In this document: positions 1 to 44,316 of the stretch, piece by piece | Position numbering within the stretch: the first letter of the stretch is position 1 | Layout of the letters: every line of letters starts with the position of its first letter | From: Candidatus Minusculum obligatum | GTDB lineage: Bacteria; Patescibacteriota; Minisyncoccia; Phycocordibacterales; Phycocordibacteraceae | DNA length: 64,000 nt | Assembly: GCA_045401155.1 (NCBI GenBank) | Contig: CP174360.1 | Span: forward strand, 419,079-483,078 | Reading direction: 5' to 3' | The notes under the pieces: model-generated | Seen by the model: only the letters and a program-made list of their open reading frames with translations | Databases searched by the model: none | What the model was told of the DNA's origin: nothing | Program-made: the position numbers and the translations under genes

Positions 1-92
1 TTCCCCAGGAAGGGAAGCTTGCATACATAAATGAAGGACGAGACACCATTCTTATACACCCCTACAAGCAGGGAGTTGCCTGTCTTAACATA

Positions 93-401
93 ATGTATTT
101 CCCCCCAGGAGTTATACAAGAGGAGCATACGCACCCATCATTCAGAGTAGGAATTGTCGTAGATGGAGAAGGTTTATGTGTTGTGCGGGGCAAAAAAATA
201 CCAATAATGAAGGACTCTATTATTTATATGGACAAAGAAACTCCTCATAACTTTTACTCAAAAACAAACTTGACTGTTATTACATACCATCCTGACAGTA
301 ATTTTGGACCAACGGACCATATCCATCCTATGATAAATAAAACTATTGTTCAAAATAAACCTGTACTTGAGTCAAAGCCTGAAATACATACAAAAAATTA
401 G
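93..401 (+). CDS. cupin-fold domain protein (possibly 5' partial)
   Basis: The cupin motif G(x)5HxH(x)n E...G is present (PGVIQEEHTHPSFRVGIVVDGEG), with a second motif around PHNF. The ORF lies near the window edge and may extend upstream. Confidence 0.45.
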   Translation: MYFPPGVIQEEHTHPSFRVGIVVDGEGLCVVRGKKIPIMKDSIIYMDKETPHNFYSKTNLTVITYHPDSNFGPTDHIHPMINKTIVQNKPVLESKPEIHTKN

Positions 402-853
402 GTGTCTAGTTTTTTTAGAAAAGTTTTAAAATTTTTCTCATAACGCAGCTCTTTTTCCTTTCTTGAAAGAGTTTCGTATGGCTGGTCTGGATTTACTTGA
501 GCCCTCATGTTTTCAAGACAATTTAAATTCGAACAAAGATACATTCCGTACTTCTTGTTCTTTTGTGCTGTTTGTACTGAAAATAGAGAAACATTCCTTC
601 CTCTGCCCGTTGTGCGGCACCAAGAACAAGACTTAGCAATATTGGTATCTACTAGAGTTCTATCAAAAATCAAACCAATTAATGAGCCTTTGGATTCAGT
701 TAGAAGGTACCCCATATGACCCGAGGGATGAATCCATGAAAAAAAGGGCTTTGTCTCAAAGCCCTCAAACAATATTTGAGGGACTCTTAGATTCTTTCTA
801 CTCTTCTTGGGGAAAAGCTCTGCGACTTCATTTTTTGACTTAAATTTGTGCAT
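398..853 (-). CDS. small zinc-finger protein (CxxC...Cx4C, treble-clef/zinc-ribbon-like); paralog of 1504..1971
   Basis: CSWC...CSNLNC motif with a conserved C-terminal helix (ETLSRKEKELRYE..FLKKL). It aligns collinearly with the 1504..1971 product (GYLLE, CxxC, SLFSV/SILTF, Cx4C, ET(L/M)S..EK..R(Y/F)E). Any resemblance to the FusB-type EF-G-binding C-terminal zinc finger is tentative only. Confidence 0.45.
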   Translation of the reverse strand: MHKFKSKNEVAELFPKKSRKNLRVPQILFEGFETKPFFSWIHPSGHMGYLLTESKGSLIGLIFDRTLVDTNIAKSCSWCRTTGRGRNVSLFSVQTAQKNKKYGMYLCSNLNCLENMRAQVNPDQPYETLSRKEKELRYEKNFKTFLKKLDT

Positions 854-880
854 ATGTACTAAAAAGAATAAACTTAGACT

Positions 881-1456
881 ATGTCTAAATCAAATACTTT
901 TATTTTCTTGAGGCACGCAGAAACAAAAAAAGATCCCTCTGTGCCAGCAATAGATTGGGAACTTACAAAAGATGGAAAAGTTAAAGTTTTGGAACTTCTT
1001 GATGATCCATCCTTCAAGATAATTGATGGTGTATATTCATCAACAGAACTAAAAGCAAAAAAAACAGCCCGACCATTTGTTGAGAAATACGAGGTTCCCT
1101 TTTTAGAAGTTGATGCACTTAAGGAAGTTAAACGAGGAGAAGCTTACCTAACCGACGAAGAGTTTCAAAAACTTAAGCGAGAAAAGCTTGAGCAACGTGA
1201 CTCGGCAAAAGATGGTGGAGAGACAGCAAATAGTGCTTTGATTCGCTTTTCAAAAGCCATGCAAGAAATTGACTCTAATCACTCTGGGGAAACAATCCTT
1301 GTTGTTTCTCACGGCACAATACTGGCGTTGTATTTTTCTAATCTCAAAAAAGATTTTGAAAACATATACTCTTACTGGAAAAATATGAAGTTTTGTGCTT
1401 TTGGAATAATAAAAGATGGAAAGGTCCAGAAGGATATTTCTAGTATTGACAGTTAA
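881..1456 (+). CDS. histidine phosphatase superfamily protein (phosphoglycerate mutase-like)
   Basis: N-terminal RHG-type motif FIFLRHAET and a downstream catalytic His region (VVSHGTILAL); about 190 aa, typical of the family. Confidence 0.75.
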   Translation: MSKSNTFIFLRHAETKKDPSVPAIDWELTKDGKVKVLELLDDPSFKIIDGVYSSTELKAKKTARPFVEKYEVPFLEVDALKEVKRGEAYLTDEEFQKLKREKLEQRDSAKDGGETANSALIRFSKAMQEIDSNHSGETILVVSHGTILALYFSNLKKDFENIYSYWKNMKFCAFGIIKDGKVQKDISSIDS

Positions 1457-1503
1457 TACAAAAATGTGTCAAAATAAGCATCTTCCTGAGGTGGGAGGCT
1501 TAA

Positions 1504-1971
1504 ATGGAATTGCCCTGGGAAAACTTGCGAAGCCAATTGCCTCGCAAAGAAAAGAAGTTCTTTGAAAGACCTCCGAACTGGAGATCTCCGGAAATGTTAT
1601 CAAGCGGTTACGTTATGTGGCGCACCAAAAACGCCAGACGCGGCTATCTGCTTGAAACTATAACTTCTGACGAAGCTTCGCTTTGGGCTTTTGAACTTGA
1701 GAGAGTTCGTAACACAAGTTCAGGCGCAATCATGTGTGATTTGTGCAAGTACGTCCACAGTGAAGCTGATGTTGGAACAAGCATCTTAACTTTCCGGCCA
1801 ACCAAAACGATTTCACGCAACTTTATTGTCTGCGCTGATCTGCAGTGCTCTAGTCGATACAAAGACATCGGTGTTAACTCGATGAGAGAAACCATGTCAC
1901 CTGCAGAAAAGCTGGAACGGTTTGAGGTCGAACTGGTAAACTTTCTCGAAAAAATTAGAGAAGCGCCGTAA
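1504..1971 (+). CDS. small zinc-finger protein (CxxC...Cx4C); paralog of 398..853
   Basis: CDLC...CADLQC motif. It shares the GYLLE block and the C-terminal ETMSPAEKLERFE..FLEKI helix with the 398..853 product. Confidence 0.45.
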   Translation: MELPWENLRSQLPRKEKKFFERPPNWRSPEMLSSGYVMWRTKNARRGYLLETITSDEASLWAFELERVRNTSSGAIMCDLCKYVHSEADVGTSILTFRPTKTISRNFIVCADLQCSSRYKDIGVNSMRETMSPAEKLERFEVELVNFLEKIREAP

Positions 1972-1990
1972 TGCCATACGGCGTTTTTTC

Positions 1991-3754: not shown

Positions 3755-3794
3755 TTCACAAAATAGTACCTCGTATCTCCTCAGTACTCAAATA

Positions 3795-5396
3795 TTACGT
3801 ATTTTTAACCGGCAACTCGATAATAAATCGAGACCCCTTCCCTTTTCCTTCTGACTCTACCCACACCCTTCCCTTATGCGCCTCCACCATTTGCTTTGCA
3901 ACATACAGTCCAAGACCTGTTCCTGAGGTATTAATCTTATTTGCTCCACGCGCACGAATAAACTTATTAAATAGATTATCAATATCCTCTTTTGCAATTC
4001 CGATACCAGTATCTGCAACAGTCACTCGTGCCTTTCCTTCAAACATTGTCGCTTTAACCGTCACGCTTCCTTGTGGTGTGTATTTAATAGAGTTATCGAC
4101 AAGGTTTGCGATCACCTGCTTTATCTTTCCAATATCAGCAGTAACTGTGATCTTCTCTGATCCGCTAAATAATAGATTTAGATTTTTATTCTCTGCGACT
4201 GGTAGATATTCATCTACAACCGTCTTTGCAAGATCTCGTAGATTAAAATCACTCATCTCATACTTCATTCGCCCCTGCTCAATACGTGAGATGTTTAGAT
4301 AGTCCTCAACTGACTTAATCATAAGCCGAGAAGACTCATAAATCTTCTGTAGTGGATCTTCAAGCACCTTTGGATATTCTCCAAACTCTTTTTCAAGGAT
4401 AAGAGAAATATATCCGCGAATAGCAGTAATAGGACTTCTAAGCTGGTGTGATGCGATAGATACAAACTCTGACTTCTGTCGATCAAGCTCTTTAAGCCGA
4501 GCATTTGCAACACGTAAATCTTCTGCAAGCTTTTCAATTCTCTCTCGCTGCTTTACCTCCTTATATACACTTTGGATCAAAAGGAATGCTGCAATACTCA
4601 CCAACACTAGTGTTGCGGTGGTAATAATGAGTGCAAGGAATGTCTGCGTAATAAAGAGCTGCGCAAGCAGGATAAGAATAATAAACCCTGCAAAAAGCTC
4701 AGTAACAATAATTTTCACGTCAAAGAGTTTAAAGCGTGCCATCGCCATAAACATCATACTTACCATCACAAGTGTAAATACTGGACCAAGCCACGTGAAC
4801 TGAAAAATACCTAGATATGGAAATAGAAGATTTGAAACAAGTGCGAGCGTTGGGGAAATAATTGCCCCAAGGAATACATAGCGCACCTGCCCCTTCTCAA
4901 GCTCCGTACGTGCAAGCGTGTATTGTCTAAACAAAAGAAAATATCCTAGGAAAAAAGATCCCGTCACAAGAGCCGAGTACCATGAGTACAGTGGACCAAG
5001 GCCATAAGAAATACCTGTTGAAGCACCAATTACTAAATCAGTAGTAAAGATTAGATATAAGAACACTCCTGCAAGTGCAATTACAGGCAACAAAAGACGT
5101 TTTCTCTTTGCAAGAATGTTTTGTGGGAAGAGTGTCGTAAAGATAAGGAAGAACAAAGAGCTTAATAGTGCAAAACTATGCGTATACTCAATCCATTGCA
5201 AAGAAAGATCTTCAAAGAGTGAAAAATAAAACCCTGCTACTGCCCCAGCCCAAAGTGCAGTAGAAAGAGAGAAAAGTGCAAAAAGAATATTCTTAAGCAC
5301 GCGTACACCGCGGGAAAATACGATAAAAGGAAAAATAATATTGATAGTCGCTGTTAGAAACAAGACTATTTGAATAACCGCGTTCGATACACTCAC
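3795..5396 (-). CDS. sensor histidine kinase, polytopic membrane N-terminus
   Basis: About 7-8 predicted TM helices, H-box SHQLRSPITAIRGY, and N/G1/G2 boxes (NLVDNSIKYT, DTGIGI, GTGLGL). No cognate response regulator is adjacent. Confidence 0.85.
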   Translation of the reverse strand: MSVSNAVIQIVLFLTATINIIFPFIVFSRGVRVLKNILFALFSLSTALWAGAVAGFYFSLFEDLSLQWIEYTHSFALLSSLFFLIFTTLFPQNILAKRKRLLLPVIALAGVFLYLIFTTDLVIGASTGISYGLGPLYSWYSALVTGSFFLGYFLLFRQYTLARTELEKGQVRYVFLGAIISPTLALVSNLLFPYLGIFQFTWLGPVFTLVMVSMMFMAMARFKLFDVKIIVTELFAGFIILILLAQLFITQTFLALIITTATLVLVSIAAFLLIQSVYKEVKQRERIEKLAEDLRVANARLKELDRQKSEFVSIASHQLRSPITAIRGYISLILEKEFGEYPKVLEDPLQKIYESSRLMIKSVEDYLNISRIEQGRMKYEMSDFNLRDLAKTVVDEYLPVAENKNLNLLFSGSEKITVTADIGKIKQVIANLVDNSIKYTPQGSVTVKATMFEGKARVTVADTGIGIAKEDIDNLFNKFIRARGANKINTSGTGLGLYVAKQMVEAHKGRVWVESEGKGKGSRFIIELPVKNT

Positions 5397-5420
5397 ACGC
5401 CTAGTATACCTGAGGTTCGC

Positions 5421-6173
5421 TTAGATAATCCGTGCAGCCTTCAGAAAATTTGTGTACAAATTATTTTTTAACTTGTATTCCGTGTCGCTTATACGATCAA
5501 AGAGGAATCGTCCGTGTACTGTTTTATCTAAAAACTTTTGCCCGTCAGTAATAGATACATATGCCGGAATCGCAGGGTCTTCTTCATTATAAAAATATGG
5601 AGCCATAGGACCATCTTCAATATATAGAAGTTTAGAATCTTCTATAAGCGTGTATGGGAAATTTAGTTTATCCAGCTTCTTAAGGAGTCTAGATTTGATA
5701 AATGAATATGAATATACAAGCCCATTCTCTTTTGCGTAATCAAGAAGACAGCTCATCATAAACAACAGCACTACATTTCTTGGAAAGTATGCAGTGTCAC
5801 TATATTTATCAATTACAAGCCGTCCAAGCTCGCACAAATGTTCCTTTGGAATATCAGCAAGTTCTTCTGGTACTTCAAAAGAATAATTATTAAATACAGG
5901 AAGTGTATGATGTTCGGCTTTAATAAGGCGAACAAATCCAATAAGACGATCTCCTACCATTGCACCAAAATATATTGTCCCTTCTTGCTCATCGTATAGG
6001 TCAGATTCTTTTTCCTCCGTATACTGCGTAGTATCAAGATAATTATATTTTGTATAAATCTTATATCGAAGCGCTTCTGCTTTTTCTACCTCCTCTTTAC
6101 TTACAAGCTCTCCAAATGAGATTACTTCATCAATATCCTTTGTTTGTACGTGGAGTGTCTTGTAAGCCTTCAT
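5421..6173 (-). CDS. GNAT-fold N-acyltransferase, N-acyl amino acid synthase-like (OlsB/FeeM/LuxI-like family)
   Basis: About 250 aa with a YFGAMVGDRLIGFVRL...ELGRLVID pattern reminiscent of FeeM/OlsB/autoinducer-synthase type acyl-ACP-dependent N-acyltransferases. Last gene of a tight 3-gene operon. Confidence 0.4.
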   Translation of the reverse strand: MKAYKTLHVQTKDIDEVISFGELVSKEEVEKAEALRYKIYTKYNYLDTTQYTEEKESDLYDEQEGTIYFGAMVGDRLIGFVRLIKAEHHTLPVFNNYSFEVPEELADIPKEHLCELGRLVIDKYSDTAYFPRNVVLLFMMSCLLDYAKENGLVYSYSFIKSRLLKKLDKLNFPYTLIEDSKLLYIEDGPMAPYFYNEEDPAIPAYVSITDGQKFLDKTVHGRFLFDRISDTEYKLKNNLYTNFLKAARII

Positions 6174-6174
6174 A

Positions 6175-6882
6175 CTACTTTGTTGCTTTATGCATCACAG
6201 CTTGATCTCCATAGTGCCGACCGTGAAATTCAACATTCTTGAATCCACCTGATTTTAGAAACGCTTCCTGACTATCTTCATCTAAGAATGCATATGCCCC
6301 ATCTTTATTTTCCATTTTAATACGTGCGTTAAACCAAAAGATTTGAAGCGTAGGGATTACAAACTTAAGGATCTTTGCACACGTACCAAAGAAGCCACTT
6401 TTATCCATTTCCTCCTTTAAGTGTGCGTTGTAAATCTTCATTGGACTGAATCCTGGAGAAATATTTGAAACAGCCACTACCCCACCTGGCTTTAGCACTC
6501 TATAAAACTCTTTAGCCACAGACTCTCGATCTTTTTCAGGAAGCGTATAGATAACATTATTTGAAACAACCTTATCAAACGTCTCATCTTCAAATGGAAG
6601 CTTATCTGTAAGACTTCCAATGTAAGCTTCTGCATCAGGAATCTTCTCAAGAAGTAGTCGTGTACCCGCATCTGAAATATCAAGCGTAACAAGATTAACT
6701 TTTGCGACAGCACAAATCTTTTTAGAAACATTTCCTGTTCCAGACCCAGCATCAAGCACTTTTTCTCCCTCTTTTGGGTCAAGTACTTTTACAAGTGCAC
6801 CCGTTAGATGTTGATATGGGTAGAGCTCATTTAGAACGTCGTACACCTCAAAATATTTATTCCAAAATTTATCTGAAAGCAT
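6175..6882 (-). CDS. class I SAM-dependent methyltransferase
   Basis: Motif I VLDAGSGTGNVS, post-I acidic residue, motif LKPGGVVAV. Lies 1-2 nt from both flanking genes. Confidence 0.8.
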   Translation of the reverse strand: MLSDKFWNKYFEVYDVLNELYPYQHLTGALVKVLDPKEGEKVLDAGSGTGNVSKKICAVAKVNLVTLDISDAGTRLLLEKIPDAEAYIGSLTDKLPFEDETFDKVVSNNVIYTLPEKDRESVAKEFYRVLKPGGVVAVSNISPGFSPMKIYNAHLKEEMDKSGFFGTCAKILKFVIPTLQIFWFNARIKMENKDGAYAFLDEDSQEAFLKSGGFKNVEFHGRHYGDQAVMHKATK

Positions 6883-6884
6883 GT

Positions 6885-7556
6885 TTATACACTATATACT
6901 ACGTCCATCACCTTCGCGGCAACTTCTTTATAATTCTCTTCATCTTTTGAAACGTATATTGGAGGGTGGAAATATACATCAACACGTGTCTTTTTAAAGA
7001 ACACTTTAAACGCATTCATTCCTCGAGTTCCATGAATGGTTGTGGGCACAATAGGTGTACCTGTTTTTGCAGCAAGATATGCTACACCACCGTGTGCTGG
7101 CACATTACGAAGCTCTTCTACAGTCAACTTATCTTTAACCCCCATTGTTCCTTGTGGGAAAATTCCTACAGAGTTTCCATCCTTCAAAATATTTAAATGG
7201 TGCCGAAGAGATTTTCCGTAGTCTTTATGTCCACGATACGCAGGCCATCCACCTCCCGCCTTAAAAAACCAGTCGGAGTATACGAGCTTTCTCCAACCTT
7301 TCCAATGATATTCGTCTTGCTTTCGCGTAACCCAAAATAGAGGTGTGTGCTTCGAGACAATAGGAAGCATTACTCGCTGCGCTACTGGATCAAGTTCATT
7401 TTGATGATTTGAAGCAAAGATCACGTTTTGATCTTTTAATGCTTCCATGTTTTCTTTTCCATGTATTACAAATGTTCCATTCAACTTAAAAAGTGAATGC
7501 AGGAGCGGAAGTGCCAGCCATTGAAGCATTTGCGCTGTAAATACGTAGAATTTCAT
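6885..7556 (-). CDS. lysophospholipid acyltransferase (PlsC/OlsA family)
   Basis: H(x)4D acyltransferase motif NHQNELD and a downstream FPQGT block. Confidence 0.75.
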   Translation of the reverse strand: MKFYVFTAQMLQWLALPLLHSLFKLNGTFVIHGKENMEALKDQNVIFASNHQNELDPVAQRVMLPIVSKHTPLFWVTRKQDEYHWKGWRKLVYSDWFFKAGGGWPAYRGHKDYGKSLRHHLNILKDGNSVGIFPQGTMGVKDKLTVEELRNVPAHGGVAYLAAKTGTPIVPTTIHGTRGMNAFKVFFKKTRVDVYFHPPIYVSKDEENYKEVAAKVMDVVYSV

Positions 7557-7591: not shown

Positions 7592-8125
7592 TTATTTGGC
7601 CAAGGCAAATAATGCGGCTAACGGGGATATAAACCACCAGAAGAAGAACTCTTTAGGCCCAAACAGTGCATCAAGTGCTGGCGTAAATGCATAAAACTCT
7701 CGTATCGGTACCAGATGATATGCGGCAGAAAGAAGAAGTGCCGTGAGCAAAAATGAAATAATTAAAAGGAAGATAATTCCCGATCTTCCTAAGAAGTCTG
7801 TCACCACCACCCTGTTTAATACGATGTACGGAGGAATCGTAAAGCTTCCAAACATCAAAAGCATCAGTGAGAGTGTCACAAGCGGCTGCCCTTGCCCTGC
7901 CTGCAGTACAACATCTTTAAATGGAAAGAGCGTGTACAGACAAACACCAACATACATCGCCATAGTAAGAGATACTACTCCCCGCCTCCCACTTCTAAAC
8001 ATGAAGAAGGCCATGAGTCCCACAAGGATAATAATGATTAGGAAGTCACTAATAAACGTCCCTGCGGATGCGGTCGTATTTTGGAATATCTCGTTTGCTG
8101 CAGTGAAATCTAGACTAGAGCCCAT
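7592..8125 (-). CDS. hypothetical integral membrane protein
   Basis: About 5 hydrophobic helices; no recognisable catalytic motif. Confidence 0.4.
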
Positions 8126-19422: not shown

Positions 19423-20649
19423 TTATGAGGCATTCACAGAAACAGTGATTTTCTCAGTATCTGTTGGGAAATTACTGCGCCAAAATGGTCGCAAAATAAG
19501 CTCTGCAGTATCAATTCCTGGGATATTGCTTAGCACGGTCTCAGCCGCATCACGGCTTTTTCCTGCAATCTCAGTCTTGATTTGATCTGCTGATACCTTC
19601 CAAACAATGTTTACACTTCCTTCAACACTTACAGTTAACTCATCCGCACTTACAAGCTCTCCTGCAGATGGAAGGTTGCTGACCATAAGTGTATTGGTAG
19701 ATCCAATAGTCACATTATCGTCGTCATAGCTTGCGATTGTCTTCTCTGCAATTGCTTTAGCAAGAAGGTCTGTTGGGAATACAAGGGCTACAGCGGTAGC
19801 CTTCTCTCGAAGTACTGCAGTACTTCCCTCACCTTCTCCATTTGATAGAGACTCTGGAATAAATGCTACAGAGTCACCAAGAAGTGTGAATCCACTTGGG
19901 ATCTGATCTGCAATCGTATCCATAAGATCATCCTTTAGCGCAGCTTGCATAGAGATACGTGTATTTGCTGCCTTTTCTTCACTTACCACTGGTCGATTTC
20001 CAATAAATCCTCCAGACATTGGTGTTTTTGCCTTTGCGTACAAACTTTCAAACTGTGGGGATCCTGCAAGACCTGGGATAGTGAAGTCTACAAGCCCTAC
20101 ATTGTAGTCAGCTCCTGCTTCATCAGCGTAGATAGTTACTTCTACAGTTCCTGGCTTTCCATCCTTCATTCCAGGAATCTCAACTGGCTCTTTTACACGG
20201 AAGATCTTTCCATCTGGAGATTCAAAGCGTGTATTAGTTACCCATCGCTGCGGTGTACTTGAGAACTCGTTGTATACAATCACGGTTCCGCTCGCTCGCT
20301 CGCTCACATTCTCGCTTCCATCTGCTGGTACCGACTGTGTTGCCACCTTTTCAATACGAACAATTTCAAATGGAAGAGGATCAGTTTCTGTACTTGTTGC
20401 AAACAAGTCAGTATTTACTGGCACCTCTCGCTCAAGTGGGTGTACTACAACCTTTGCACCTGCAAACATTGCCGCTACACCAACTCCCACGATAAGAGCT
20501 GCTACGATTATTAAAATTAGAGTGAGTAATGGTCGTCCTTTCTTACCATTATTAGACGGCTCATAGGTATTTACCGCAGGAACCGCTTCATCCTCTACCA
20601 TCCGACGACGTGATGGTGGAATGATATCTTCTACACGTTTTGCGCCCAT
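19423..20649 (-). CDS. hypothetical membrane-anchored protein (cytoplasmic N-tail, 1 TM, large extracytoplasmic domain)
   Basis: TM segment LLTLILIIVAALIVGVGVAAMFAGA; no known motif. Contains a (CGCT)4 tetranucleotide repeat at 20289..20304. Confidence 0.5.
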   Translation of the reverse strand: MGAKRVEDIIPPSRRRMVEDEAVPAVNTYEPSNNGKKGRPLLTLILIIVAALIVGVGVAAMFAGAKVVVHPLEREVPVNTDLFATSTETDPLPFEIVRIEKVATQSVPADGSENVSERASGTVIVYNEFSSTPQRWVTNTRFESPDGKIFRVKEPVEIPGMKDGKPGTVEVTIYADEAGADYNVGLVDFTIPGLAGSPQFESLYAKAKTPMSGGFIGNRPVVSEEKAANTRISMQAALKDDLMDTIADQIPSGFTLLGDSVAFIPESLSNGEGEGSTAVLREKATAVALVFPTDLLAKAIAEKTIASYDDDNVTIGSTNTLMVSNLPSAGELVSADELTVSVEGSVNIVWKVSADQIKTEIAGKSRDAAETVLSNIPGIDTAELILRPFWRSNFPTDTEKITVSVNAS

Positions 20650-39587: not shown

Positions 39588-41177
39588 TTGAGCTCAAAAA
39601 TGAAAATTGTATCAAAAGCGCTTGCGCTACTTACAAAGCCAGTTACTTGGTTTAAAAACTTACGAAAGCGAATGAAATTGCTTGTGCTTGCAGTGCTTGC
39701 GTTCCTTTTCATTGGAATTATTGCGAGTGTGCTTTTTGGACCAAAGACTACAGATGAAGATCTACAAGATACATCATCGGTAGTTGAACTTAAGTCTCCG
39801 CGAGAGATTGCAACAACACTAGATCCCCTACCTCTTGTAGGTAACGTACGATCTGCAACAGAGGCAACAATTTTAACTGAAGCATCAGGGCGAGTTACTC
39901 GTGTATACCGATCTCTTGGAGATTATGTAAGCGCTGGATCTGTTATCGCAGAAATCGAGAACAGCTCTGAGTATGCTGCTGTACTACAAGCAGAAGCAAA
40001 CCTTGCACGTGTTGAAGACTCTTCAGAAGATGAGCAGCTAAGTTCTGCAATAACCGGACTACAAACAGCAAAAGAGTCTTCTCTTGCGACAATCTTAAGC
40101 GCATACGCAACAGTACAAGATGCAATTCGTCAAAAAGCAGATGCAACATTTTCAAACCCAACAACCGCAAGTGCCGAGTATGAAATAAGCACAAGTGATT
40201 CTGCACTTGAAAATCAAATTGAAAGTAGGCGTGTAAGTATGCAACGCATTCTTTCTCGACAACAGGCAACCGGCGCAATTCTTACTACAGAAAGCAATCT
40301 TGATGTTGAGCTAAAGACTGCACTAGATGAATTAAAAGAGGTTCGCACATATCTAGATCTTGTTGTTGAGTCTCTAAACAAAGCTATTCCAAATAATGAT
40401 TTCTCTACAAGTGACATCTCAAGCTTTAGCACGAGTGTAAGTACTGGCCGAACCGCAGTTACTACGTCTATCTCATCTATTGCTGCAAGCATTGAAAACC
40501 TTGCTGCAAAACGTGCAGCAAAAGAGATTGCTGAAAACTCTCTTGAAAATAGCACCACAGGCGTAAAGCGACAGGATGTATTACAAGCAGAAGCATCTCT
40601 TGCTGCCGCACGTGCTGCATTTGAAAAGAAAGTTATTCGTGCACCATTCTCCGGAACGGTAAACGCTCTAAATATTGAGCTTGGACAGTTTGTGAGCGCA
40701 TTTGAACCTGCTGCAACGATTGCAAACAATGGGATTCTTGAAATTCGTGCATATATCACGGAGCGTGATAAAGAGTACGTATTCCCCGGACTTTCCGTTT
40801 CATCTCTTGATGGAATTAAAGGAACTATTACAGAGGTGGCGCCCGCACTTGATCCAATTACAAAGCGTATTGAAGTGCGCATTGCCCTAAGTGATACAGG
40901 ATCTATTACAAACGGACAGTCTATTCGACTTCTTGTGGAACGCACAAAAGAAAATGTAGAAGTAGTAACTCCTATTGTGCCCCTAACTGCAATTACCTTT
41001 AAAGGAAACGATCCTTTTGTCTTCACTGTAGATCAAGAAAATACTCTTGTTGCAGTACCCGTAACGCTTGGTGTGATCCTTGGAGATCGAATTGAGATCG
41101 AAGGAATTGATGTGGATACACAAGTGGTAGTTGATGCACGAGGATTTCTAGAAGGTGAAGTAGTAACAACCAACTAA
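39588..41177 (+). CDS. efflux RND transporter periplasmic adaptor subunit (membrane fusion protein)
   Basis: N-terminal TM anchor, biotinyl/lipoyl-like half-motifs (VRSATEATILTEASGRVTRV...SVIAEIEN), unusually long Ala/Ser-rich coiled-coil, beta-barrel C-terminus. Confidence 0.8.
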   Translation: MSSKMKIVSKALALLTKPVTWFKNLRKRMKLLVLAVLAFLFIGIIASVLFGPKTTDEDLQDTSSVVELKSPREIATTLDPLPLVGNVRSATEATILTEASGRVTRVYRSLGDYVSAGSVIAEIENSSEYAAVLQAEANLARVEDSSEDEQLSSAITGLQTAKESSLATILSAYATVQDAIRQKADATFSNPTTASAEYEISTSDSALENQIESRRVSMQRILSRQQATGAILTTESNLDVELKTALDELKEVRTYLDLVVESLNKAIPNNDFSTSDISSFSTSVSTGRTAVTTSISSIAASIENLAAKRAAKEIAENSLENSTTGVKRQDVLQAEASLAAARAAFEKKVIRAPFSGTVNALNIELGQFVSAFEPAATIANNGILEIRAYITERDKEYVFPGLSVSSLDGIKGTITEVAPALDPITKRIEVRIALSDTGSITNGQSIRLLVERTKENVEVVTPIVPLTAITFKGNDPFVFTVDQENTLVAVPVTLGVILGDRIEIEGIDVDTQVVVDARGFLEGEVVTTN

Positions 41178-41178
41178 T

Positions 41179-44100
41179 ATGTTTCATTTCTGGAATTTCT
41201 TTCTATCTAAACGACCTTTTAGCTATCTGCTAATTGGAGCGTTCATTTTCTTTGGGCTTGTTTCAATTATTGCAATTCCTAAAGAATCAGCACCCGAGGT
41301 GAAGGTGCCTATTGGTGTTGTCTCATCTGGGCTTCCAAATGCTTCAGCTGAAGATATTGAGACCCTTATCACAAATAAACTTGAGCAGGAGTTTAAATCT
41401 TCTCTTGAGGGTGTAAAAAATATCACTTCTACAACACGAGAAGGATCTGTTGGAGTGGTTGTAGAGTTTGAAGCCTCTGCTGATCTTGAGGACTCTATCC
41501 GCAAACTACGTGACGCTGCAGATAATGCACGAAGCGAACTTCCTGATGATGCATTTGATCCAGTTGTATCTGAAATCAACTTTGCAGATCAGCCAATCAT
41601 GACCATTTCTGTGCTTGGTCCAGTTGCAATTGAAGAGCTCACAAGTATCGCAAACTTTGTAGAGGAAGAGCTTGAGAAAGTTTCTGGTGTATCAAAAGTA
41701 GATACTGGAGGAGTTCGAGATAAGGAGGTGCAAGTAATTGTCTCTCAAGAGTCTCTAAAAACATATGGGATTAACTTAAGTGATGTTGTGGGAGCACTGT
41801 CTCGTACAAACGCGTCACTTCCTGCCGGAGATATCACTATTGGAAATGCAAAGTACGCGATTAAATTTGAAGGAGACATCGATACACCTGAGGAAGTTGC
41901 GGATCTTGCAATTTTAAGTGTTGGTGGCCAGCCTGTTTATGTACGAGACATTGCCGATGTACGCGTGGGACTTGAAGAGACACGAACCATCTCTCGCGTA
42001 TCACTTGAAGGAGCAAATCCACAAAACGCTATTTCATTTTCTGTATATAAGCGAAGTGGTGGAGACATTACTCGCATCGCTCGATCAGTACACGAAAAGC
42101 TTGATGAGCTACGCAGCACAGATCAACTACAAGGACTACAAACACTTGTAACGTATGACATGGGTGAAGAAGTTGAGAAAGATCTCGTAAACCTTACGCG
42201 CACAGGACTGCAGACCGTATTCCTTGTAACTATCATTCTCTTTATTGCACTTGGATGGCGCGAAGCGCTTATTGCGGGTCTTGCAATACCTCTTTCATTT
42301 ATTATTGGGTTCATTGGCCTGTATAACTCAGGCAATACCCTTAACTTCGTATCACTCTTCTCTCTTATTCTTGCGGTTGGAATTCTTGTGGACTCAGCAA
42401 TTGTGATTGTTGAAGGAATCCATACACGAATGAAAAACTGGGAGGGCAAGTTACAAAGTGCTCGAGAAGCAATTAAGGAGTACAACTACCCTATTACTGC
42501 TGGTACGTTTACTACCATTGCAGTATTTGCGCCCTTATTCCTTGTATCAGGAGTGACCGGAGAGTTTATTGCATCTATTCCATTTACGATTATCTTCGTG
42601 TTGCTTGCATCACTATTTGTGGCGCTTGGTCTTATTCCTCTTATTGCGTCTTCATTTATGAAGCGACGAAGCACTTCTAAGATGGAAGAGATTCAGGAAA
42701 AGTACACTCATAAACTACAAGACTGGTACAAAGAAAAAGTACAGATCATTCTTGGAAAGAAGCGTCGAGAAACATTCTTTATTTGGGGAATTATTGGACT
42801 ATTTATTCTTTCATTTTTCCTTCCTGCACTTGGACTTGTAAAAGTTACATTCTTTGAACAAGGAGACGTGGAAAACTTGTTTGTAGACATTGAGCTACCG
42901 CAAGGAACAACACTTGCCCGATCTAACCTAGAAGCACAAAAGATTGAAGAGATTCTTTTACAAGATAGTCGCATCGCTGACTTCACCACCACTATTGGAC
43001 AAGCAAGTCCATTTAATGGAGAAGGAACTACAGACTCTAAATTTGCAAACATGCAAATTACCCTTGTTGAGGATCGAAAGGAAACAAGTACTGAAATTCT
43101 AAAAGATCTTCGAAAGAAGGTGGCACACATCACCACATCAGATATTCGTATCGATGAGCCAAGCGATGGACCTCCTACAGGAGATGCTATTTCTGTAGAA
43201 CTTCTTGGAAATAACCAGGATGAGCTTCTAATTGCTGGAGCGCAGGTAAAAGCACTCTTTGAAGATATTGAGGGTACCGCCAATATCCAGACAAGCGCTC
43301 GGGACAATGCTGCACAGTTTGTACTTTCTATCGACCGAGCTAAGGCTGTGGAGCTTGGACTCTCTCCTCTTGATGTAGCGCAGGTACTACGTACCTCAAT
43401 CTCAGGAGTAGATGCAACTTCAATCCCTCAGTCTGATACGGACGTAGATATTGTTGTAAAAACAAATCTTGCAACTGAGTATTCTGACCCACACGAGACA
43501 AATCGAGCGACACTTGATGAAGTACGGCAGCTAACCATCAACGGGCCACAAGGACCAGTGCTGCTCGGGTCTCTTATTACAGAGAGTTACGAGGTATCAA
43601 ATGCAGTAATCCGCCACAAGGATGGGAAACGTGTACTTACTGTTTCTGGAGATAAAACACCTGAAGCAAATACCTTCGCTATTGTTGCTGAGTTTATGCA
43701 GCGACAAGGTGAGCTTGACCTCCCATCTAGTGTAACTCTAAGCATTGGCGGAGAGTCTGATGAATCAAACCAGGCATTTGCTGAGATGCTTCTCTCACTT
43801 ATTGTAGGACTTCTCGCAATGCTCGCAATTCTTGTACTGCAGTTTAACTCATTTAGATATGCAGGATACGTGCTCTCAATCGTACCGTTCTCACTTATTG
43901 GAATCTTTGCAGGACTTGCGGTCTCAGGACAGCCACTATCGTTCCCTTCTGTGATGGGATTCATCGCCCTTACAGGAATTGTGGTGAATAACTCAATTAT
44001 TCTTATTGATGTGATGAACAATATTCGTCGCGAGAATCCAGATAAGAGTATTGAAGATGTGGTGCTTGAAGGAACAACAAGCCGTCTACGGCCAATCCTC

Positions 44101-44316
44101 CTTACAACACTTACAACTGTGATTGGAGTTATGCCACTTCTATTCTCTTCAGCACTATGGGCACCACTTGCCTGGGCAATCATCTTTGGACTTACATTTT
44201 CAGTAGTCCTTACACTTATCCTCATTCCTATCATCTACCGACGATGGCCAGGAGTTCTTCCTGAAGAAAAAGAAAAGCTAAAACTACAAGCTGAAGAAGC
44301 TGTAGCAAAACAATAA
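41179..44316 (+). CDS. RND efflux transporter permease (AcrB/HAE family)
   Basis: 1045 aa with 12 TM and two large periplasmic loops; start is 2 nt after the adaptor stop. Confidence 0.95.
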   Translation: MFHFWNFFLSKRPFSYLLIGAFIFFGLVSIIAIPKESAPEVKVPIGVVSSGLPNASAEDIETLITNKLEQEFKSSLEGVKNITSTTREGSVGVVVEFEASADLEDSIRKLRDAADNARSELPDDAFDPVVSEINFADQPIMTISVLGPVAIEELTSIANFVEEELEKVSGVSKVDTGGVRDKEVQVIVSQESLKTYGINLSDVVGALSRTNASLPAGDITIGNAKYAIKFEGDIDTPEEVADLAILSVGGQPVYVRDIADVRVGLEETRTISRVSLEGANPQNAISFSVYKRSGGDITRIARSVHEKLDELRSTDQLQGLQTLVTYDMGEEVEKDLVNLTRTGLQTVFLVTIILFIALGWREALIAGLAIPLSFIIGFIGLYNSGNTLNFVSLFSLILAVGILVDSAIVIVEGIHTRMKNWEGKLQSAREAIKEYNYPITAGTFTTIAVFAPLFLVSGVTGEFIASIPFTIIFVLLASLFVALGLIPLIASSFMKRRSTSKMEEIQEKYTHKLQDWYKEKVQIILGKKRRETFFIWGIIGLFILSFFLPALGLVKVTFFEQGDVENLFVDIELPQGTTLARSNLEAQKIEEILLQDSRIADFTTTIGQASPFNGEGTTDSKFANMQITLVEDRKETSTEILKDLRKKVAHITTSDIRIDEPSDGPPTGDAISVELLGNNQDELLIAGAQVKALFEDIEGTANIQTSARDNAAQFVLSIDRAKAVELGLSPLDVAQVLRTSISGVDATSIPQSDTDVDIVVKTNLATEYSDPHETNRATLDEVRQLTINGPQGPVLLGSLITESYEVSNAVIRHKDGKRVLTVSGDKTPEANTFAIVAEFMQRQGELDLPSSVTLSIGGESDESNQAFAEMLLSLIVGLLAMLAILVLQFNSFRYAGYVLSIVPFSLIGIFAGLAVSGQPLSFPSVMGFIALTGIVVNNSIILIDVMNNIRRENPDKSIEDVVLEGTTSRLRPILLTTLTTVIGVMPLLFSSALWAPLAWAIIFGLTFSVVLTLILIPIIYRRWPGVLPEEKEKLKLQAEEAVAKQ

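Follow-up and report, generated by a model that had tools for sequence, protein, structure and literature searches.

Predicted stand-alone FusB-type C-terminal-domain proteins in a Patescibacteria genome, and the conserved histidine phosphatase cassette that contains one of them

Clinical resistance to fusidic acid is most commonly caused by FusB-type proteins. The Staphylococcus members of this group (FusB, FusC, FusD and FusF; PDB 4ADN, 2YB5, 9GHC-9GHH) are target-protection proteins that bind EF-G. FusB's C-terminal domain extends the domain IV beta-sheet of EF-G and its K99-K105 loop contacts h18/h34, and the protein also binds the decoding centre without EF-G (PMC12008383). The N-terminal domain is a wedge that, in the mechanism derived from cryo-EM, is required for EF-G release (PMC12008383). 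Listeria and Enterococcus carry chromosomal FusB homologues with both domains, labelled 'fibronectin-binding protein' homologues, which are presumed to have a housekeeping role, possibly in ribosome binding, and the 2025 cryo-EM paper explicitly leaves open the native, non-resistance role of FusB-type proteins and their homologues (PMC12008383).

Here we analysed a 64-kb stretch of Patescibacteria DNA (the window) that encodes two small proteins, A (398..853, minus strand; 151 aa; NCBI XKT75000.1) and B (1504..1971, plus strand; 155 aa; NCBI XKT75002.1), on either side of a histidine phosphatase (881..1456, plus strand; 191 aa). A 27-bp intergenic region (854..880) separates the start codon of A from that of the phosphatase. 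Protein A is transcribed in one direction from this gap and the phosphatase and B in the other, thus placing the phosphatase between the two paralogs, as the sequence-only reading had described.

Both proteins exceeded the curated gathering threshold (27.2 bits) of the Pfam family FBP_C (FusB C-terminal-domain-like; PF16571). A reached 71.2 bits, with model positions 11-154 of 155 covered, and B reached 39.2 bits (E=6.6e-10) over positions 11-155. In each protein the match begins at residues 14-16 with no other Pfam match, and there is no N-terminal four-helix bundle. Approximately 120 other representatives match PF16571 only and, like A and B, are about 150-160 aa long; within this set A and B are ordinary full-length members with no structural difference. 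Stand-alone FBP_C proteins occur in Patescibacteria, Chloroflexota, Proteobacteria and Flavobacteriales. Homologues were collected by an exhaustive search of representatives, and a 48-sequence alignment was used for conservation analysis and AF2 modelling; all 48 sequences match FBP_C and no other domain. In a word-indexed homologue search, A or B alone returned only the query and the alignment returned six proteins. The proteins already carry the NCBI label 'FBP domain-containing protein', so that the family is catalogued, albeit uncharacterised. Literature searches for stand-alone FBP proteins found no paper describing them, and none describing the phosphotransferase neighbourhood of their genes. 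What is new here is the division into A-type and B-type subfamilies, the linkage of B-type genes to His_Phos_1 genes and the wider phosphotransferase neighbourhood of stand-alone FBP_C.

A treble-clef or zinc-ribbon domain with a tentative likeness to the FusB-type C-terminal domain had been suggested for both proteins, and this assignment was upheld by Pfam, by profile comparison and by fold search. The profile of the 48 homologues matched the C-terminal domains of FusC (E=6.5e-10) and FusB (E=2.6e-9) in the PDB, aligning only from FusB/FusC residues 91-93 onward, and the N-terminal domain is present in 0/48 homologues. The family profile was needed to detect this relationship, as single-sequence phmmer searches of PDB sequences with A or B found neither FusB nor FusC. 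The alpha/beta fold of the FusB/FusC C-terminal domain was recovered by the same profile, by the fold search and, for A only, by an AF2 model from the 48-sequence alignment (pLDDT 93.2, pTM 0.85; pLDDT 42.6 in a single-sequence run). All 48 homologues share W40, C76, C79, C107 and C112 (A numbering), confirming that the cysteines are conserved. The predicted zinc ligands are these four cysteines in A and C78, C81, C110 and C115 in B. Taken together, profile and fold comparisons identify A and B as free-standing FusB/FusC C-terminal domains with a predicted four-Cys treble-clef zinc site.

Comparison with FusB revealed both retained and altered features. FusB W122 corresponds to the invariant tryptophan and Y131 to a conserved Tyr/Phe of the stand-alone family, and the basic loop K99-K105 is retained (PKKSRKNLR in A, PRKEKKFFER in B). 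Cysteines C157, C160 and C189 align with those of the family, as does C195 when one extra FusB residue is allowed. In contrast, neither protein retains both FusB F156 and Y187, the two residues at which mutation abolishes EF-G binding: the F156 equivalent is serine in A and methionine in B and in 39 of the 48 homologues, and the Y187 equivalent is tyrosine in A and in 22 of the 48, and isoleucine in B. The FusB hairpin loop K174-S177, which touches the small subunit, is deleted across the whole stand-alone family, the last cysteine pair is spaced Cx4C rather than Cx5C, and the four-helix-bundle wedge that dislodges EF-G is absent. Unlike FusB, the stand-alone proteins carry an extra, highly conserved C-terminal segment of 35 residues with a long helix (motif M.ET(L/M)S..EK..R...). 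Moreover, A and B differ from the Staphylococcus FusB group in being chromosomal, in belonging to Patescibacteria and in having one copy within a phosphatase cassette. The Listeria and Enterococcus homologues are also chromosomal but keep both domains, whereas A and B consist of the C-terminal domain only.

Protein A and protein B are homologous end to end, in agreement with their earlier description as paralogs. A single BLASTP comparison gave 25% identity over 147 aa (E=2e-8), and alignment of the A-type and B-type subfamily profiles covered 148 columns with 99.8% probability (hhalign, E=2e-28). Most of the blocks that had been listed as shared were present in both: CxxC (CSWC in A, CDLC in B), S(L/I)(F/L)(S/T)(V/F) (SLFSV, SILTF), Cx4C (CSNLNC, CADLQC) and the C-terminal helix (ETLSRKEKELRYEKNFKTFLKKL in A, ETMSPAEKLERFEVELVNFLEKI in B). 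The block given as GYLLE is only approximate, because the common GYLL continues as TE in A and as ET in B. Proteins from other organisms score far higher than this pair: A matched B with ~20 bits and P0012 with 87 bits, and B matched P0005, P0006 and P0008 with 91-96 bits (96 for P0005). A recent tandem or local duplication is excluded by these values. As judged from sequence similarity, A and B represent two old subfamilies, each closer to proteins of other organisms than to one another. The A-type subfamily is marked by WIHPSGH(L/M)GY and the rarer B-type by MCDLC.(F/Y)VH and GVNSMRE(T/S).

The identification of the middle gene as a histidine phosphatase of the phosphoglycerate mutase superfamily proved correct. 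The protein matched His_Phos_1 (PF00300) with 73.6 bits (cut-off 21.7; E=2e-20) and contains the catalytic motifs R11-H12 (RHAET) and H144 (SHGT), with H144 invariant in the five orthologues aligned. It scored far below the cut-off of every NCBIfam equivalog compared (CobC, PspA, dPGM, SixA-like), the best being TIGR03162 (CobC; 45.3 bits against a cut-off of 162.9), with PspA at 39 against 350. The best PDB relative was the uncharacterised protein Atu0299 (2qni). The RHxxT and SHG motifs and a similar length are common to PhoE (1EBB/1H2E), the phosphoserine phosphatase PspA (4IJ5), the alpha-ribazole phosphatase CobC and Atu0299 (2QNI). However, the window phosphatase differs from these proteins in that it falls into its own well-conserved orthologous group, which is tied to B-type FBP_C genes.

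This tie was evident from gene order. An orthologous His_Phos_1 gene lies directly upstream, on the same strand, in all five B-type loci with a readable upstream flank (L025, L026, L033, L034 and L035), which represent four lineages besides the window. These phosphatases are 53-62% identical to that of the window, and the accompanying FBP_C proteins only 31-33%. Because B-type genes always follow an orthologous His_Phos_1 gene in this manner, the segment 881..1971 is a conserved two-gene cassette, with a 47-nt spacer (1457..1503), a strong ribosome-binding site for B and a terminator-like element after B. That four other lineages repeat it with gene order and strand unchanged is hard to explain without selection for linkage. 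In contrast, the paralog-phosphatase-paralog arrangement did not recur in the sample, which includes few close Patescibacteria relatives: none of the 24 genomes with an A-type homologue had a second FBP_C gene or a phosphatase homologue within 6 kb, and L034 and L035 have an NTP-transferase-like gene rather than an FBP_C gene upstream of the phosphatase. A-type genes are usually solitary elsewhere and their contexts are mixed, which rules out a conserved neighbour for A-type genes generally. The idea of a duplicated family flanking the phosphatase as one unit was therefore not borne out, since A and B belong to old subfamilies and the conserved part is the phosphatase and B only; 'regulatory module' is an interpretive label for the locus.

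The local DNA features are as follows. A strong Shine-Dalgarno sequence, GGGAGG (1493-1498, plus strand), lies 5 nt before the start of B, and none was found before A or before the phosphatase. The terminator-like hairpin (1958..1989, plus strand; 13-pair stem with five GC pairs, then a T tract) overlaps the B stop codon and adjoins a convergent ABC-transporter gene ending at 1991. A promoter-like sequence, TTGACA-18-CAAAAT (1446-1475, plus strand), has 10/12 consensus matches; a consensus promoter was not found in the divergent gap. Since promoter-like sites were no more numerous in the region than in shuffled sequences, we infer operon structure from spacing and synteny only. The phosphatase ATG is the centre of an imperfect inverted repeat (860-879 and 883-902), which is possibly due to chance, given its 70% complementarity within AT-rich DNA. 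On the other side, a Cupin_2 gene (3..401, plus strand; Pfam E=5e-9), truncated by the left end of the window with its frame open back to position 3, is convergent with A and the two stop codons overlap. It shares 27-28% identity (E ~5e-7 in a small database) with the Cupin_2 protein heading the FBP_C cluster of L010, and may belong to the FBP_C neighbourhood, although its membership is uncertain.

These comparisons suggest that A and B are probably modules that bind the translation machinery or some other macromolecule and are coupled to phosphoryl chemistry. As a whole, the locus is best explained by EF-G/ribosome-type binding modules with B partnered to the phosphatase, a reading that we hold tentatively and at slightly less than an even chance. 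By analogy with the FusB C-terminal domain, A and B would be non-catalytic and would dock on a macromolecule through the edge of the beta-sheet and the basic N-terminal loop, with EF-G domain IV and/or decoding-centre rRNA as the most likely target. Lacking the N-terminal wedge, they presumably cannot dislodge EF-G from the ribosome in the manner of FusB, and would thus serve as adaptors or occluders rather than release factors. Protein B would work with the phosphatase, either bringing it to a phosphorylated or nucleotide-bearing target or, alternatively, having its own binding controlled by the phosphatase's substrate. Protein A could be an independent paralog that is adjacent by happenstance, or could share the divergent control region. 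Several observations count against this reading: there is no EF-G gene near A or B, the F156 and Y187 equivalents are only partly kept, the K174-S177 loop is deleted and the last cysteine pair has Cx4C spacing.

In other genomes the recurring neighbours of stand-alone FBP_C genes are a PPDK_N/PEP-utilizers phosphotransferase, an NTP-transferase-like protein, an NMT1-type ABC importer, and NUDIX, HIT and MazG proteins. Their resemblance to small-molecule and nucleotide chemistry counts against a translation role. Genes for PEP-utilizers (~470 aa), NTP-transferase-like (~240 aa) and FBP_C proteins co-occur in six lineages (L002, L010, L034, L035, L040 and L042) with GC contents from 28% to 69%, and in two related loci the phosphatase-B cassette sits inside this larger phosphotransferase neighbourhood. 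A single 972-aa protein unites the three enzymatic modules in L010, with NUDIX and FBP_C next in order, and the L042 FBP_C gene shares 4 bp with the ABC ATPase gene before it. Like rifampin phosphotransferase, PEP synthase and PigC-type enzymes (ATP-grasp PPDK_N, substrate domain and swivel His), the neighbours carry PPDK_N and PEP-utilizers domains; unlike them, they are split in two genes or fused to an NTP-transferase-like domain, and their substrate domain has no Pfam match. Such arrangements, together with the only partial conservation of EF-G-contact residues, speak for an explanation in which stand-alone FBP_C proteins are unrelated to translation and instead serve a small-molecule pathway as accessory, regulatory or carrier subunits stabilised by zinc. 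A compound X would be imported by the NMT1-type ABC system, phosphorylated by PPDK_N and swivel-His enzymes, nucleotidylated by the NTP-transferase-like enzyme and trimmed by His_Phos_1, NUDIX, HIT or MazG proteins, with the window phosphatase and B a remnant or part of this pathway. However, the 64-kb window contains no PEP-utilizers, PPDK_N or NTP-transferase-like genes, the majority of A-type loci (e.g. in marine Pseudomonadales) are without such neighbours, those relatives of the fold that have been characterised all bind EF-G and rRNA, and FBP_C has no evident catalytic or ligand-binding motif beyond its structural zinc site. We consider this pathway possible, though on the unlikely side.

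The binding-module reading may also be joined to this neighbourhood. Stand-alone FBP_C would then be the EF-G/ribosome-targeting part of a widespread, undescribed phosphoryl/nucleotidyl-transfer system, a proposal that we regard as decidedly unlikely. Its proposed components are a PPDK_N ATP-grasp enzyme, a swivel-His carrier, an NTP-transferase-like enzyme and an 'eraser' of the His_Phos_1, NUDIX, HIT or MazG type. The system would reversibly modify the translation machinery, or would both produce and break down a nucleotide-type signal for FBP_C to read on EF-G or the ribosome. In this view the Patescibacteria window would have a minimal version, with the phosphatase as eraser, a reader of the B-type and a paralog of the A-type.

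Could the three genes simply be functionally unrelated neighbours in a compact genome, with the similarity of A and B the sole real signal? The gene density of Patescibacteria genomes, the lack of a conserved partner for A-type genes and the GC content of B (0.453), which differs from that of A (0.368) and the phosphatase (0.358), are consistent with coincidence. However, the adjacency of phosphatase and B-type genes in four other lineages largely refutes it for that pair, leaving this explanation with only a slim chance overall.

A role in resistance, with A and/or B as minimal FusB-type proteins shielding EF-G or the ribosome against a natural product, fusidane-like or otherwise, that targets translation and the rifampin-phosphotransferase-like enzymes of related loci as drug-modifying partners, is very improbable: A and B share fold and family with FusB/FusC, neighbouring PPDK_N and swivel-His proteins match models and structures of rifamycin-inactivating phosphotransferases (far below cut-offs) and ABC exporter genes adjoin B in the window and occur in L040, but the wedge required for EF-G release (PMC12008383) is missing, the family is widespread in varied contexts across free-living marine and soil bacteria and a reduced Patescibacteria genome, and the genes show no association with mobile elements or plasmids (one plasmid match, no phage matches). 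A plasmid-borne resistance gene was rejected on the same ground, the one match being weak and on a Streptomyces megaplasmid. An anti-phage defence system (no PADLOC match among A, B, the phosphatase and the associated phosphotransferase genes) and a phage origin (no PHROG match for A or B and no viral relatives) were likewise rejected.

Of the forms that the FusB-type fold takes, the stand-alone C-terminal-domain proteins appear the more widespread. The subfamily split, the coupling to a dedicated histidine phosphatase and the neighbourhood of phosphotransferase, NTP-transferase-like and nucleotide-hydrolase genes provide testable handles on this domain outside resistance. If the link to translation is true, these proteins would point to a so far unrecognised control of EF-G or the ribosome; if false, the 'EF-G-binding' annotation of the domain is over-extended. 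Should the phosphoryl/nucleotidyl-transfer reading hold, it would reveal the long-sought native function ancestral to FusB-type resistance.

Three open reading frames occupy 398..1971, exactly as the sequence-only reading had placed them: the zinc-finger protein A (XKT75000.1; 398..853, minus strand, 151 aa), a phosphatase (881..1456, plus strand, 191 aa) and a second zinc-finger protein, B (XKT75002.1; 1504..1971, plus strand, 155 aa). The paralogy claimed for A and B was borne out in a single comparison (147-residue alignment, 25% identity, E=2e-8), and all of the shared blocks listed are present, with 'GYLLE' approximate only, since after GYLL the sequence continues TE in A but ET in B. The starts of A and the phosphatase lie on opposite strands, separated by a 27 bp gap in the window sequence. 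No Shine-Dalgarno sequence precedes either start (854..902 region), and therefore both transcripts may be leaderless. The phosphatase ATG lies at the centre of an imperfect 20-nt inverted repeat (860-879 / 883-902, 70% complementary), which could reflect chance, given the AT-rich DNA. The 47-nt spacer between the phosphatase and B holds a ribosome-binding site (GGGAGG, 1493-1498), and the B stop codon is overlapped by a hairpin and T-run. GC fraction is uneven across 398..1971 (B 0.453, A 0.368, phosphatase 0.358; window mean 0.417).

NCBI already names both A and B 'FBP domain-containing protein'. Against Pfam FBP_C (PF16571), the FusB/FusC C-terminal domain, A scored 71.2 bits and B 39.2 bits (threshold 27.2), each match spanning essentially the whole 155-position model; an NCBIfam search of the two gave no match. 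By profile score, A and B are members of FBP_C. An exhaustive HMMER search with an A+B profile recovered 124 representatives (E<=1e-3) with lengths of 120-180 aa in almost every case, and 48 of the 48 homologues aligned match FBP_C and no other domain. Within this alignment W40, C76, C79, C107 and C112 (A numbering) are invariant, while L110, E127 and R137 are nearly so. The likeness to FusB, an EF-G-binding fusidic-acid resistance protein, had been proposed tentatively and proved correct: the family profile matched FusC (2YB5, E=6.5e-10) and FusB/Far1 (4ADN, 9GHC; E=2.6e-9), with the match confined to residues 91/93 to 203/205, the C-terminal domain. Only profile positions 5-120 were used, and therefore the conserved C-terminal helix (M.ETLS..EK..RL..N...F) is a feature of the stand-alone family that has no FusB counterpart. 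As judged from these matches, A and B are domain-only proteins.

Scored against every representative, A reached 87 bits to the homologue P0012 and 60-80 bits to many others, its high-scoring relatives carrying the motif WIHPSGHLGY (A-type). B reached 91-96 bits to P0005, P0006 and P0008, which carry MCDLC.FVH and GVNSMRETLS (B-type). Between A and B themselves the score is only about 20 bits, yet hhalign aligns the A-type and B-type profiles as homologues over their full length (99.8%, E=2e-28). On these scores A and B are two old subfamilies. Local duplication was rejected as their origin, because each scores far higher to proteins of other organisms than to the other. The B-type is rare, with a handful among 1.8 billion representatives plus three short metagenome loci.

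Synteny of the A-type was assessed in 24 GTDB genomes with a homologue, including ones from Chloroflexota, Candidatus Paceibacter, many marine Pseudomonadales, other Gammaproteobacteria, Stellaceae, Sphingobium and Flavobacteriales. Each of the 24 encodes exactly one FBP_C gene, and in none does a homologue of the window's phosphatase lie within 6 kb of it. Neighbours are heterogeneous. At the closest A-type relatives a P-type ATPase gene adjoins (locus L036), PheRS/DnaJ/NDK genes precede (L037) or unrelated genes surround the FBP_C gene (L041). The proposed paralog-phosphatase-paralog module is therefore not conserved. The earlier observation is confirmed, and its interpretation as a whole is partly supported.

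The phosphatase belongs to His_Phos_1, and its RH(A)ET and SHGT motifs are intact; it reached no NCBIfam equivalog cut-off, and among PDB entries its best relative is Atu0299, an uncharacterised protein. It also matches PHROG 12933 (function unknown, E=7e-14), which indicates that relatives occur in phage genomes; no phage relatives were found for A or B. Wherever the DNA on the upstream side of a B-type homologue is readable, an orthologous His_Phos_1 gene lies directly upstream on the same strand: full-length in L033 (188 aa; phmmer E=1.7e-62), L034 (190 aa) and L035 (186 aa), and partial at the contig edge in L025 and L026. The full-length phosphatases share 53-56% identity with the window's and 61-63% with one another, and the partial ones about 60% with the window's over the aligned part, compared to only 31-33% between the B-type FBP_C proteins and B. 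This adjacency, together with the higher identity of the phosphatases, indicates selection for the linkage, and by this comparison the conserved unit of the window is 881..1971.

A further association was observed around related FBP_C genes. In L034 and L035 an NTP-transferase-like gene precedes the phosphatase-FBP_C pair, and the opposite strand carries genes for a PEP-utilizers (swivel-His) protein of ~470 aa and a PPDK_N (ATP-grasp) protein. The same swivel-His and NTP-transferase-like proteins flank FBP_C genes of other types. In the A-type locus L002 (FBP_C protein 34% identical to A) the order is NTP-transferase-like, PEP-utilizers, FBP_C, NMT1-type ABC importer and PPDK_N; in L042-L045, also A-type, PEP-utilizers, ABC importer and FBP_C follow with 4-bp gene overlaps; in the A-type L010 a Cupin_2 gene heads a 972-aa fusion of PEP-utilizers, PPDK_N and NTP_transferase, then NUDIX and FBP_C; and in the weakly B-type L040 the order is PEP-utilizers, FBP_C, NTP-transferase-like and HIT. 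A MazG gene immediately precedes FBP_C in L001. The six lineages with this neighbourhood span 28-69% GC, and the neighbourhood often also includes an NMT1-type ABC importer and a hydrolase of the NUDIX, HIT, MazG or His_Phos_1 kind. The NTP-transferase-like protein (about 240 aa) has no significant Pfam match, the likeness of the swivel-His protein to PEP synthase and rifampin phosphotransferase is limited to its C-terminal part, and no protein of the neighbourhood matched known defence systems. In L035 the minus-strand database gene call at 3789..4547 (249 aa) has no Pfam match and seems to have been assigned to the wrong strand; read on the plus strand, the frame 3798-4547 shares 49% identity with the L034 NTP-transferase-like protein. 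A separate recurrent arrangement is seen in L028-L032 (loci of P0041 and P0125), where ChrB_N, a PHO4 phosphate-transporter family gene and a stand-alone FBP_C gene follow in that order on one strand.

Phosphotransferase and NTP-transferase-like genes are absent from the 64-kb window, which starts only 880 bp left of the phosphatase. The first gene at the window's left edge, a Cupin_2 gene truncated by that edge (3..401, plus strand), is convergent with A, and the two stop codons overlap (399-401 and 398-400). With 27-28% identity to the Cupin_2 that heads the L010 cluster, it may be part of that neighbourhood. Elsewhere, a minus-strand run of four genes (3795..7556) encodes a 7TM-HisKA histidine kinase, a FeeM/autoinducer-synthase-like N-acyl amino acid synthase, a class I methyltransferase and an acyltransferase. 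They may form a cluster for a lipid-like signal or metabolite, something unusual in a reduced Patescibacteria genome. An HlyD-family membrane-fusion protein and, after it, a 1045-aa AcrB-type RND transporter are encoded at 39588..44316 (plus strand), and minus-strand ORFs of 408 aa (19423..20649) and 177 aa (7592..8125) without a Pfam match lie among housekeeping genes (ribosomal-protein-sized ORFs, DnaJ/DnaK, MetRS).

In FusB, the C-terminal domain lengthens the beta-sheet of EF-G domain IV, touches 16S rRNA through its K99-K105 and K174-S177 loops and can bind the decoding centre alone, while the N-terminal bundle acts as a wedge between EF-G domains I and V that releases EF-G (PMC3352095, PMC12008383). 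A and B retain the core Trp, Tyr and zinc site of FusB and its basic loop (PKKSRKNLR in A, PRKEKKFFER in B). However, they lack the K174-S177 loop, A has Tyr and B has Ile at the Y187 position, F156 is Ser in A and Met in B, and the last Cys pair is Cx4C rather than Cx5C. A and B would be non-catalytic binding modules for which docking on EF-G domain IV and/or rRNA is still plausible, though they could not serve as release wedges, and B would partner the phosphatase in a targeting or regulatory role. We consider this translation-linked reading quite possible, a little short of probable. The main rival, drawn from the gene neighbourhood in related loci, is that FBP_C serves as an accessory in a small-molecule uptake, phosphorylation and nucleotidylation pathway with no translation link, which we regard as unlikely though worth serious consideration. 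Mere coincidence of the neighbouring genes is improbable, with a His_Phos_1 gene upstream at each readable B-type locus. FusB-like drug resistance is more improbable still: A and B fall outside the FusB-type resistance family, as a check for the N-terminal domain showed it to be missing.

A and B themselves are already catalogued and are of a known kind. Our literature search found no paper describing stand-alone FBP domain proteins, nor the recurring FBP_C, swivel-His, NTP-transferase-like and PPDK_N neighbourhood. The division into A-type and B-type, the strict phosphatase-B linkage and the recurring phosphotransferase, NTP-transferase and hydrolase neighbourhood of FBP_C genes appear to be new, and all three are relevant to what FusB-family proteins do natively.
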